DNA of 64,000 nucleotides from an uncultured Nitrososphaerota archaeon (GTDB taxonomy: Archaea; Asgardarchaeota; Njordarchaeia; Njordarchaeales; Njordarchaeaceae). The stretch spans positions 160,001 to 224,000 of the forward strand of contig CAZFGR010000001.1 of NCBI GenBank assembly GCA_964518475.1, given 5' to 3'. The notes beneath the pieces were generated by a model. That model saw only the letters and a program-made list of their open reading frames with translations, searched no databases and had not been told where the DNA came from. Of the stretch, positions 12,036-46,177 are shown one piece after another. Every line of letters begins with the position of its first letter. Position 1 is the first letter of the stretch. Made by a program: the position numbers and the translations under genes.

Positions 12036-12509
12036 ATGGTAACTAAATCTCCACGTGGTGAATTTGCTGCAAGAGTTTTGCGAAGAAAAAGAAAAAAGCA
12101 GAGATGGGCTGATGTAGAATATAGAAGACGAATGTTGAGGCTTCGAGAAAAATACGATCCCCTAGAGGGCGCTCCTCAAGCAAGCGCCATAGTTTTGGAG
12201 AAAGTGGGTATAGAAGCTAGAAAGCCAACAGGAGCTCTTAGAAAAGCTGTAAGAGTAAAAATAAAGAAAAATGGAAAAATTGTAACAGCTTTCGTGCCTT
12301 ACGATGGAGGATTATTATTCATAGATGAGCACGACGAGGTAATCATTGAGAGGATAGGGGGCAGCCAGGGACGATCAATGGGGGACATGCCCGCGATCAA
12401 ATGATCGCGGGCACCCCAAATCCCAGGAGTTAAGTTCAGAGTCGTCAAAGTAGCTGGCATAGCCCTTAAGGAGTTAGTGACTGGTAGAAAGCGGAAAGAG
12501 AGAAGATAG
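12036..12509 (+). CDS. rps12: 30S ribosomal protein uS12, spliced: join(12036..12386,12420..12509), 146 aa
   Basis: uS12 N-terminal part runs to MGD; after a 33-nt insert the frame continues [29 protein letters not shown]. Confidence 0.95.
12387..12419 (+). other. BHB microintron in rps12 mRNA (33 nt, contains in-frame TGA)
   Basis: GGGG-AC^A-TGCCCGCGATCA-aa-TGATCGCGGGCA-CCCC-AA^A; canonical cuts give GAC ATC (D-I). Confidence 0.92.
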
Positions 12510-32734: not shown

Positions 32735-33021
32735 GATCCACCTTACCCAAAACACTAAATTAGTTACTTAAATTACAATTTCGAAAAGCTTGAGAAAAAT
32801 ACATAAAAAAAGATTATGTTATATATTCTAAAAATAAGGATAAGAATACGGGAAAAATTCTTTAATGAAAAGTTGTTTTGTTAAAAAGAATGAACTGAAA
32901 TTATTCTTAAATGATTGAGCAGACAAGTTACCAGAAAACAAGCATAAAATTTAAAAGACAATCAGAAGGACGTGTAGTATATATTTTAGAAGAGTATGGG
33001 CCGGTAGCTCAGCCCGGGTAG

Positions 33022-33040
33022 ACCGAGCTATCGGGCTCAT
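33022..33040 (+). other. tRNA intron at non-canonical position 22/23 (19 nt)
   Basis: GGGT-AG^A-CCGA-gcta-TCGG-GCTC-AT^A; central helix has two G.U pairs. Confidence 0.8.
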
Positions 33041-33055
33041 AGCGTCCGGCTCTTA

Positions 33056-33091
33056 AACCCACCAGAGTATTACTCTGGTGGGTCTAGAGAA
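33056..33091 (+). other. tRNA intron at canonical position 37/38 (36 nt)
   Basis: CTCT-TA^A-ACCCACCAGAGT-att-ACTCTGGTGGGT-ct-AGAG-AA^A; relaxed BHB. Confidence 0.9.
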
Positions 33092-33230
33092 ACCGGATGG
33101 TCGCGGGTTCAAATCCCGCCCGGCCCGCCAAAACGCTTCTTTAAGTATGTTCTTATCTCCTCCTATTGTCTATCCCTACTCCCCAAAGCACTCTCTACAC
33201 TCTACTTTTGTGCATAGTATAGGTTATGTT

Positions 33231-45386: not shown

Positions 45387-46177
45387 TTACTTCTTTCTGC
45401 GTCCCGTTCTCCTAGGAGCAATAGCTCCAACTTTTCTGCCAGGTGGTGCATGTCGCGAGACACTCTTGGGCTTGCCAGGGCTCTGATCTCGCCCGCCTCC
45501 AAAGGGGTGGTCACAGGCACTGATGGGACGGGAGCCCCCACGAGTGTGTAGTGGGACTCCCGTCCTTTCATCGCCACTCCTCTGGTTCTTGGCCATTTGT
45601 GTGCTTTTACTCTCCATTTGTGGTAGGCGTTGCCTGCTTTTACTAGTGGTAGTTCGTCTTTTCCTGTTCCGGCTACTATTCCTATTTGTGCTCTGCTGTT
45701 CCAGTTTATCCTTATTATTCTTTTTCCGGGGAGTTCTAGTTCTGTTTGTTCTAGGTGCGCGTGGTGGGCTCTTATTATTGCGTATGTTCCTGCTGCTCTT
45801 GCTATTTTTCCTCCATCGCCTGGTCTTATCTCTATGTTATATACGGGTGTTCCTTCTGGAATCTTTCTTAGTGGTAGCGCGTTCCCTATATCGATTTCCG
45901 CATTCTCTCCGATTTGAATCTCCTTCCCCGTGTATAATCCTTCTGGAGCTATTAGCCAGATTTTTTCTATCACTCCATTGGCTCTTACAAACTTCACTAA
46001 TGCTAGTGGGGCATACCTTCCGGGTTCCTTATACAATTTAAGCACTGTGCCTCTGGCAACATCTTTCATAGCTTCTGGCCAGTCTGGGATTTTTACATCC
46101 GCTACTCTTATTCCTGGAGGAGCTCTGTATACTGATGTTCCTCTCCCTACCCTTTGAGCTCTTATGCGCTTACCCAT
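45387..46177 (-). CDS. rpl2: 50S ribosomal protein uL2, spliced: complement(join(45387..45519,45567..46177)), 247 aa
   Basis: MGKRIRAQR...WPRTRGVAM in one frame and DHPFGGG...PPGRKVG...RRTGRRKK in another; removing 47 nt gives [15 protein letters not shown]. Confidence 0.95.
45520..45566 (-). other. BHB microintron in rpl2 mRNA (47 nt, frameshifting)
   Basis: Minus strand ggc-GATG-AA^A-GGACGGGAGTCCCAC...GTGGGGGCTCCCGTCC-CATC-AG^T-gcc; strict hBHBh'. Confidence 0.95.

Follow-up and report, generated by a model that had tools for sequence, protein, structure and literature searches.

A putative bulge-helix-bulge intron interrupts the gene for ribosomal protein uL2 in a Njordarchaeota-related archaeon

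The gene for ribosomal protein uL2 (rpl2) in an archaeal metagenome-assembled genome (MAG) whose closest named relatives are Candidatus Njordarchaeota MAGs is broken by an insert of 47 nt, which very probably represents a bulge-helix-bulge (BHB) intron of the tRNA type in the uL2 pre-mRNA. As read from the sequence, the uL2 mRNA would almost certainly need splicing for a working protein to be produced. The DNA analysed, referred to here as the window, is a stretch of 64,000 nt (G000:C1:160001-224000) belonging to G000, a 2.33-Mb MAG that consists of 121 contigs and is 91% complete with 5.8% contamination.

The uL2 gene and its insert

Exon 1 of uL2, on the minus strand of the window, is normal up to ...PRTRGVAM, and the match of the Pfam family Ribosomal_L2_C on it (E 1.2e-30) stops at profile position 101 of 126, which is the exon end. 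The remainder of uL2 lies beyond the insert in a different frame and runs to a stop at 45387 (Table 1). Excision of 45520-45566 joins AA to T, forming an Asn codon, and yields a coding sequence of 247 codons (744 nt) in which the AMN-x-x-DHP-x-GGG motif of uL2 is regained; homologues carry the name 50S ribosomal protein L2. This Asn is found in neither of the unspliced frames, since that of exon 1 reads AMK-GRESHY... and that of exon 2 reads ...RPIS-ACDHP. The unspliced exon-1 frame stays open through the insert and gives a 273-aa ORF with a frameshifted tail. A preliminary description, made from the sequence of the window, had placed a 47-nt insert of strict hBHBh' geometry in uL2 on the minus strand, with a GGC/GCC outer helix, a GATG/CATC central helix and two 3-nt bulges, AAA and AGT; its length and position were borne out, and every one of these structural elements was matched. 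Translation of the joined exons and reading of both frames likewise upheld what had been said of the coding sequence, namely that canonical cuts join AA to T in AAT, that this codon for Asn exists in neither unspliced frame and that the spliced product measures 744 nt.

The predicted exon-exon junction is GCGAUGAA joined to UGCCUGUG, also written GCGAUGAA joined to UGCCUGUGAC, and a circularised 47-nt intron is predicted to carry the back-spliced junction ...CCCAUCAG joined to AGGACGGG.... Only one uL2 locus is present per genome, in G000 and in every intron-bearing relative. Public protein collections hold unspliced, frameshifted uL2 products of 229-276 aa with nonsense tails from intron-bearing lineages (P0002, P0003, P0004, P0010-P0012 and P0016), database entries of 266-276 aa among them; this gene and those of uS12 and aEF-1alpha are mis-annotated by gene callers.

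Table 1. Features of the uL2 gene and its predicted intron, and of the two further candidate introns of the same genome. Positions are those of the window unless another contig range is given; nt, nucleotides; PTC, peptidyl-transferase centre.
Feature	Position	Strand	Description
uL2 (rpl2) exon 1	45567..46177	-	611 nt, from ATG (46177-46175) to ...GTG GCG ATG AA; from Pfam and translation
Predicted 47-nt BHB intron	45520..45566	-	From nt 3 of the 5' bulge to nt 2 of the 3' bulge; 66% G+C, against 37% in the window
uL2 exon 2	45387..45519	-	133 nt including the TAA stop; PTC-proximal extension and C-terminus; ends ...RRKK
Outer helix h, 5' strand	45573..45575	-	GGC, exonic; partner GCC at 45516-45518
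Central helix H, 5' strand	45569..45572	-	GATG, exonic (final G of an Ala codon, then the Met codon); partner CATC
5' bulge	45566..45568	-	AAA; predicted cut 45567/45566; invariant in 8/8 alleles
Inner helix h', 5' strand	45551..45565	-	Hairpin of 13-15 bp, of which 13 pairs are contiguous; 8/10 pairs with compensatory changes across alleles
Inner hairpin loop	45542..45550	-	
Inner helix h', 3' strand	45526..45541	-	Partner 45551-45565
Central helix H, 3' strand	45522..45525	-	CATC, intronic; allele variants CGTC, CATT (G-U wobble) and CACC (one A.C mismatch)
3' bulge	45519..45521	-	AGT; predicted cut 45520/45519; alleles carry AGT, AAT, AGC or AAC
Outer helix h, 3' strand	45516..45518	-	GCC, which encodes Ala in exon 2
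uS12 exon 1	12036-12386	+	
Candidate uS12 intron	12387-12419	+	33 nt, BHB
uS12 exon 2	12420-12509	+	
Candidate aEF-1alpha intron	G000:C1:93853-93883 (locus L050 1854-1884), outside the window	+	31 nt, strict BHB

Insert alleles and uninterrupted relatives

Inserts at the same uL2 codon were found in eight alleles, drawn from genomes and metagenomes of several studies and brought together in an alignment, A1. They comprise allele A (47 nt) in G000, G002 and L074, allele B (47 nt) in G004, allele C (53 nt) in G005, allele D (53 nt) in L069, allele E (53 nt) in L068, allele F (44 nt) in L072, allele G (46 nt) in L075 and allele H (32 nt) in L076. None of these lengths, which range from 32 to 53 nt, is divisible by three (0/8), and the inner hairpins sort into five groups that are unrelated to one another in sequence (A/B/G, C/D, E, F and H). 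The BHB is nevertheless kept in the same register in all eight. In the central helix, GATG faces CATC, CGTC or CATT, and in allele F it faces CACC with one A.C mismatch, so that 31 of 32 cells are paired; in some alleles the outer helix is down to two pairs. The third nucleotide of the 3' bulge is T or C throughout (8/8), and the junction codon is therefore always AAT or AAC, that is, Asn.

Over the whole of A1, 91.1% of the cells are paired and 9 of the 17 pairs are changed on both sides. None of 500 shuffles of the alignment attained the observed values of paired fraction, double changes or covariation score, and pairing falls to 37-52% when the 3' partner is slid by 1-3 columns. A separate register test gave 83 of 88 paired, against 28-48 of 88 in other registers, and nine compensatory pairs were reported by RNAalifold. 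The 80-nt region of G000 folds at -39.3 kcal/mol in RNAfold (z = -3.0), and 2 of 200 shuffled sequences were equally stable. In the minimum of both RNAfold and RNAalifold the outer part of the structure is slid by one register with respect to the two canonical 3-nt bulges; the canonical BHB register can form but does not have the lowest computed energy, and such a slid register is common for BHB motifs.

Relatives that lack the intron read ...GVAMN-A[VC]DHP... without a gap, and include G001 and G003 of the same genus, G007, G008 and G013 of the same order, L091-L094 and other Asgard families. When 400 Asgard genomes were searched with an intronless homologue, an interruption was seen, among the matches listed, only in G000, G002, G004 and G005. 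In these interrupted genomes of the window's genus the match is cut at residue ~204 and a second piece is found; the match in G001 ends at the contig end and the other matches listed are full length. An alignment of uL2 with that of relatives was one of the checks put forward in the preliminary description, and the intronless homologues proved to be continuous at exactly the predicted boundaries.

On a tree of the exon-1 protein, intron-bearing and intronless alleles are interleaved, as illustrated by P0004, which has the intron and is sister to P0006, which has none (support 100/97); the uL2 element has therefore been repeatedly lost or gained. Between G000 and G002 the exon-1 protein is 96% identical and the DNA ~80%, and both uL2 exons are clearly under purifying selection.

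Predicted splicing and its enzymes

In the proposed mechanism, the transcript would fold so that exonic GGC-GATG-AA faces intronic CATC-AG and exonic U-GCC around the stable intronic hairpin. The 3' strand of the central helix (CATC) would come from the intron itself and pair with the coding GATG. An EndA endonuclease, most likely of the crenarchaeal (alpha-beta)2 type, would then cut after nucleotide 2 of each 3-nt bulge, the exons would be joined by RtcB, and the 47-nt intron would probably be circularised by the same ligase. The mature mRNA would encode a normal uL2 of 247 aa, whose Asn codon (AA+U) would be made by the ligation itself, and translation of an unspliced mRNA would lead into a frameshifted tail without the D-H-P extension towards the peptidyl-transferase centre. 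The Asp-His-x-His/Phe tip of the L2 extension adjoins helix 93 and the P site, and mutants in it impair peptidyl transfer (PMC2330241); the unspliced 273-aa product should be non-functional because this tip is lost. Cleavage, ligation and the fate of the unspliced uL2 message are steps that we infer. Counted against the intron reading are the A.C mismatch of allele F, the outer helices of two pairs and the slid register of the computed fold. It also demands that, with transcription and translation coupled, ribosomes be kept from reading the unspliced uL2 message.

The genome encodes an EndA alpha subunit of crenarchaeal type, 215 aa long (G000:C1, ORF at L043:1474-2121; Pfam, 101.8 bits), which contains both Pfam domains and in which the Tyr, His and Lys are visible; its best PDB matches are the catalytic chain of the heterotetramer from Aeropyrum pernix (3p1z_B/3ajv_B, E 6e-50). 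A second, divergent EndA-like protein of 203 aa (L044:1441-2052; 31 bits) is beta-like and without the His, and RtcB is matched at 500 bits. To judge from these sequences, the gene layout of G000 is that of the (alpha-beta)2 EndA enzymes, which have been reported to accept non-canonical substrates (PMC5829648). The intron interpretation of the preliminary description is thus supported by the two predicted enzymes, the single-copy state of the gene, the seamless relatives and the eight covarying alleles with their Asn junction.

ARAGORN placed an intron in 20 of the 45 tRNA genes that it found in G000. One tRNA gene with an intron lies within the window (32998-33130, plus strand), where a 71-position Rfam tRNA model is matched over 130 nt and ARAGORN gives an intronless tRNA-Asn of 98 nt whose anticodon, ATT, is odd; since the two disagree, the intron or introns of this gene are probably non-canonical.

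Other candidate introns in the same genome

Genome-wide scans of G000 for the BHB motif returned ~47,000 matches under loose criteria and many false positives under open-reading-frame criteria. Among the scan candidates, only uL2, aEF-1alpha and uS12 regain recognisable conserved motifs; the others, such as G000:C5:56605-56641, C8:36095-36122 and C9:29568-29596, are motif candidates and are not put forward as introns. Earlier scans required at least two outer pairs, and uS12 was found only in a later one from which the outer-helix requirement had been removed.

The aEF-1alpha insert has a CGGG/CCCG central helix, bulges ATA and AAA and a 9-bp hairpin. It shifts the frame 17 codons ahead of the stop, and its removal gives ...PPLGRFAVRD joined to MGQLVAVGVVQEIKKAQ and the stop (RFAVRD joined to MGQLVAVG). 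G002 and G001 carry this insert too, differing in small or compensatory ways; it is missing in G004, in G006 and in every order-level relative. In the uS12 insert the central helix is GGGG/CCCC, the bulges are ACA and AAA, the hairpin measures 12 bp and the outer helix is weak. This insert contains an in-frame TGA; once it is removed, the protein reads ...GRSMGD joined to IPGVKF. It recurs in G002 and G001, where the helix is compensated, and at this site G003-G007 run on without a seam.

The three introns are distributed unevenly. All of them are present in G000 and G002; G001 has those of aEF-1alpha and uS12 and lacks that of uL2; G004 has that of uL2 and lacks the other two; and in G005 the uL2 intron is present, the uS12 intron is absent and the aEF-1alpha gene is fragmented. 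Each lies 80-96% along its coding sequence, within a very conserved motif. They are unrelated to one another in sequence, and blastn-short detected no second copies of them in G000. The cbf5 gene of G000 gave a TruB_N match without a stop or break.

The aEF-1alpha gene of G003 (locus L053, G003:C39, ~2100) has an abnormal end, in that right after ...RFAIRD, at the intron site of its relatives, it passes into A+T-rich sequence. Its exon 2 was not found by a degenerate pattern anywhere in G003, which is 66% complete. Misassembly could account for this end, as could a large insertion or a gene that is split.

Mosaic similarity, codon usage and alternative readings

The uL2 genes of G000 and G002 (45387-45577 of the window, minus strand, compared with locus L002) are mosaics in their similarity. 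In exon 1 the identity is 72-83% per 60-nt window, the intron is 100% identical, and exon 2 runs from 97 to 90% (93% overall). The jump in identity precedes the 5' splice site by ~10 nt, and the flanks of the gene are unalignable. The same mosaic is found in aEF-1alpha of the two genomes, with 80-84% in exon 1, 30 of 31 positions identical in the intron and 52 of 54 in exon 2; the corresponding comparison of uS12 revealed no such mosaic. The mosaic could result from structural constraint on the introns, or from recent recombination exchanging an intron together with its 3' exon.

A boundary in codon usage lies at nearly the same place. Over ~200 codons of uL2 exon 1, the share of T-ending codons is 0-5% in several lineages (L004, L068, L072 and L091-L093), with fractions of 0.00-0.02 in G004, L068, L072 and L092; in G000 it is 0.01 over the last 83 codons of exon 1 (45569-45814, minus strand). 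In exon 2 the share is 28-49% in every allele. The switch occurs no more than a few codons from the intron site in both intron-bearing and intronless alleles, and where S6e adjoins upstream, the T-depleted zone starts in the last ~40 codons of S6e. No such depletion was seen when it was looked for in aEF-1alpha and uS12. A link between the depletion and the presence of the uL2 intron was considered and rejected, both allele types being found in both codon styles. A 172-codon antisense ORF (45523-46041, plus strand) was opened as a by-product of the depletion of T-ending codons.

It has been considered that the BHB micro-introns of Njordarchaeales translation genes are mobile, in the sense that recombination would carry an intron and the downstream exon together in a tract resembling co-conversion, followed by repeated loss. 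The uL2 and aEF-1alpha mosaics of G000 and G002 would fit such mobility, and the codon-usage boundary, even in intronless alleles, could be a legacy of intron and exon exchanges; as an account of these elements it is nonetheless judged rather unlikely.

Another reading accepts a BHB intron and adds that its splicing is deliberately incomplete or conditional, so that it would act as a switch tying the output of uL2, uS12 and EF-1alpha to the activity of EndA and RtcB. That three translation genes of one genome carry introns so far along their coding sequences and in such conserved motifs speaks for a switch, as does the complete identity of the uL2 intron in two species whose exon 1 differs by ~20%. 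Each of the three introns is, however, missing in close relatives, and that of uL2 is patchy on the uL2 tree, a distribution that fits dispensable elements better; regulated splicing of this kind is considered distinctly improbable.

Translational recoding would dispense with splicing altogether, either by a programmed frameshift within the insert or by ribosomes hopping over the hairpin in the manner of phage T4 gene 60. The insert is indeed a stable hairpin within a coding sequence, and with the exon-1 frame open throughout it an internal frameshift could in principle regain the frame. A frameshift would, however, put a stretch of 10-17 unconserved residues at the PTC-proximal tip, between AM and DHP, and would lose the Asn, which is invariant in nearly all relatives. 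For hopping, no codon was seen ahead of the hairpin that could serve for take-off and recurs at a landing site beyond it. The eight alleles conserve BHB geometry and the T or C at position 3 of the 3' bulge, not coding content, and the uS12 insert of the same genome contains an in-frame stop. Recoding therefore seems very improbable.

An error of assembly or sequencing, or a uL2 pseudogene in the G000 MAG, can scarcely be credited, since, against the fragmentation and contamination of this MAG and the contigs of DNA run X1, which leave the insert uncovered, there stand a contig of DNA run X2 that covers 45449-45599 with zero differences, the identical 47-nt allele in three assemblies (G000, the Guaymas-type Njordarchaeota MAG G002 and a JGI metagenome contig, L074), of which the two further ones practically exclude an assembly artefact, seven more alleles in independent metagenomes, and a gene that is universal, single-copy here and under purifying selection in both exons.

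Relation to known introns and significance

The BHB intron reading of the uL2 insert has one close precedent. In the literature searched, the archaeal protein-coding intron confirmed at the RNA level is that of cbf5 in Crenarchaeota (Aeropyrum, Sulfolobales and Desulfurococcales; Watanabe 2002; Yokobori 2009, PMC2738675), and other cases of archaeal mRNA introns have been predicted and never confirmed (PMC2738675). Like the uL2 insert, the cbf5 intron is a short BHB element in a protein-coding gene, situated in the codon of a conserved residue, and it is cut between bulge nucleotides 2 and 3, where the cuts in uL2 are predicted. It goes with a heteromeric EndA, such as is predicted for G000, and both are patchily distributed, which suggests gain and loss. 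The two differ in host, cbf5 encoding a pseudouridine synthase in Crenarchaeota and uL2 a ribosomal protein in Njordarchaeota/Asgard, and in structure, cbf5 introns having mostly been described as unconventional, whereas the uL2 intron is a strict hBHBh'. The uL2 intron, unlike that of cbf5, also belongs to a set of at least three that one genome has in its translation genes. The splicing of cbf5 was demonstrated by cDNA, whereas that of uL2 is predicted here from DNA. In mechanism the proposed uL2 intron does not depart from cbf5, and its novelty lies in the host gene, in the lineage and in the concentration of such introns in genes for translation.

The BHB introns of archaeal pre-tRNA and rRNA share with the uL2 insert the motif, the predicted enzymes (EndA and RtcB) and the cleavage rule. 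In comparison with pre-tRNA introns, the host in uL2 is an mRNA whose junction must hold the reading frame, and the 5' half of the BHB consists of coding Ala-Met-Asn codons. A BHB-type intron has also been described in an mRNA of Haloferax volcanii, in its 5' UTR (Schwarz 2020, PMC7714728). It resembles the present case in that an mRNA would serve EndA as substrate; its site is reportedly an untranslated leader, where the reading frame is not interrupted. A further parallel is offered by HAC1/XBP1 of eukaryotes, in which a short, frame-changing mRNA intron with sites defined by stem-loops is removed in the cytoplasm independently of the spliceosome, the ends are joined by tRNA ligase or RtcB and splicing alters the C-terminus of the protein. 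The endonuclease there is IRE1, the recognition motif is another and the process is stress-regulated. Searches of the literature on Asgard or uL2 mRNA introns returned no relevant paper, and in the main text of a recent Asgard tRNA-intron preprint, as covered by a term search, neither mRNA nor ribosomal-protein genes are mentioned.

Within the literature searched, cbf5 is the only confirmed instance of EndA-type splicing of an archaeal protein-coding message. The present case would place such splicing in an Asgard-affiliated archaeon, in the gene of an essential and universal ribosomal protein that would have no functional product unless spliced, and the same would hold for uS12 and aEF-1alpha. 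Eight natural alleles with intronless controls provide a test set for the specificity of EndA, for the coordination of splicing with coupled translation and for intron gain and loss. In relatives of the ancestor of eukaryotes, gene expression may thus regularly involve the splicing of mRNA by the machinery that serves tRNA.
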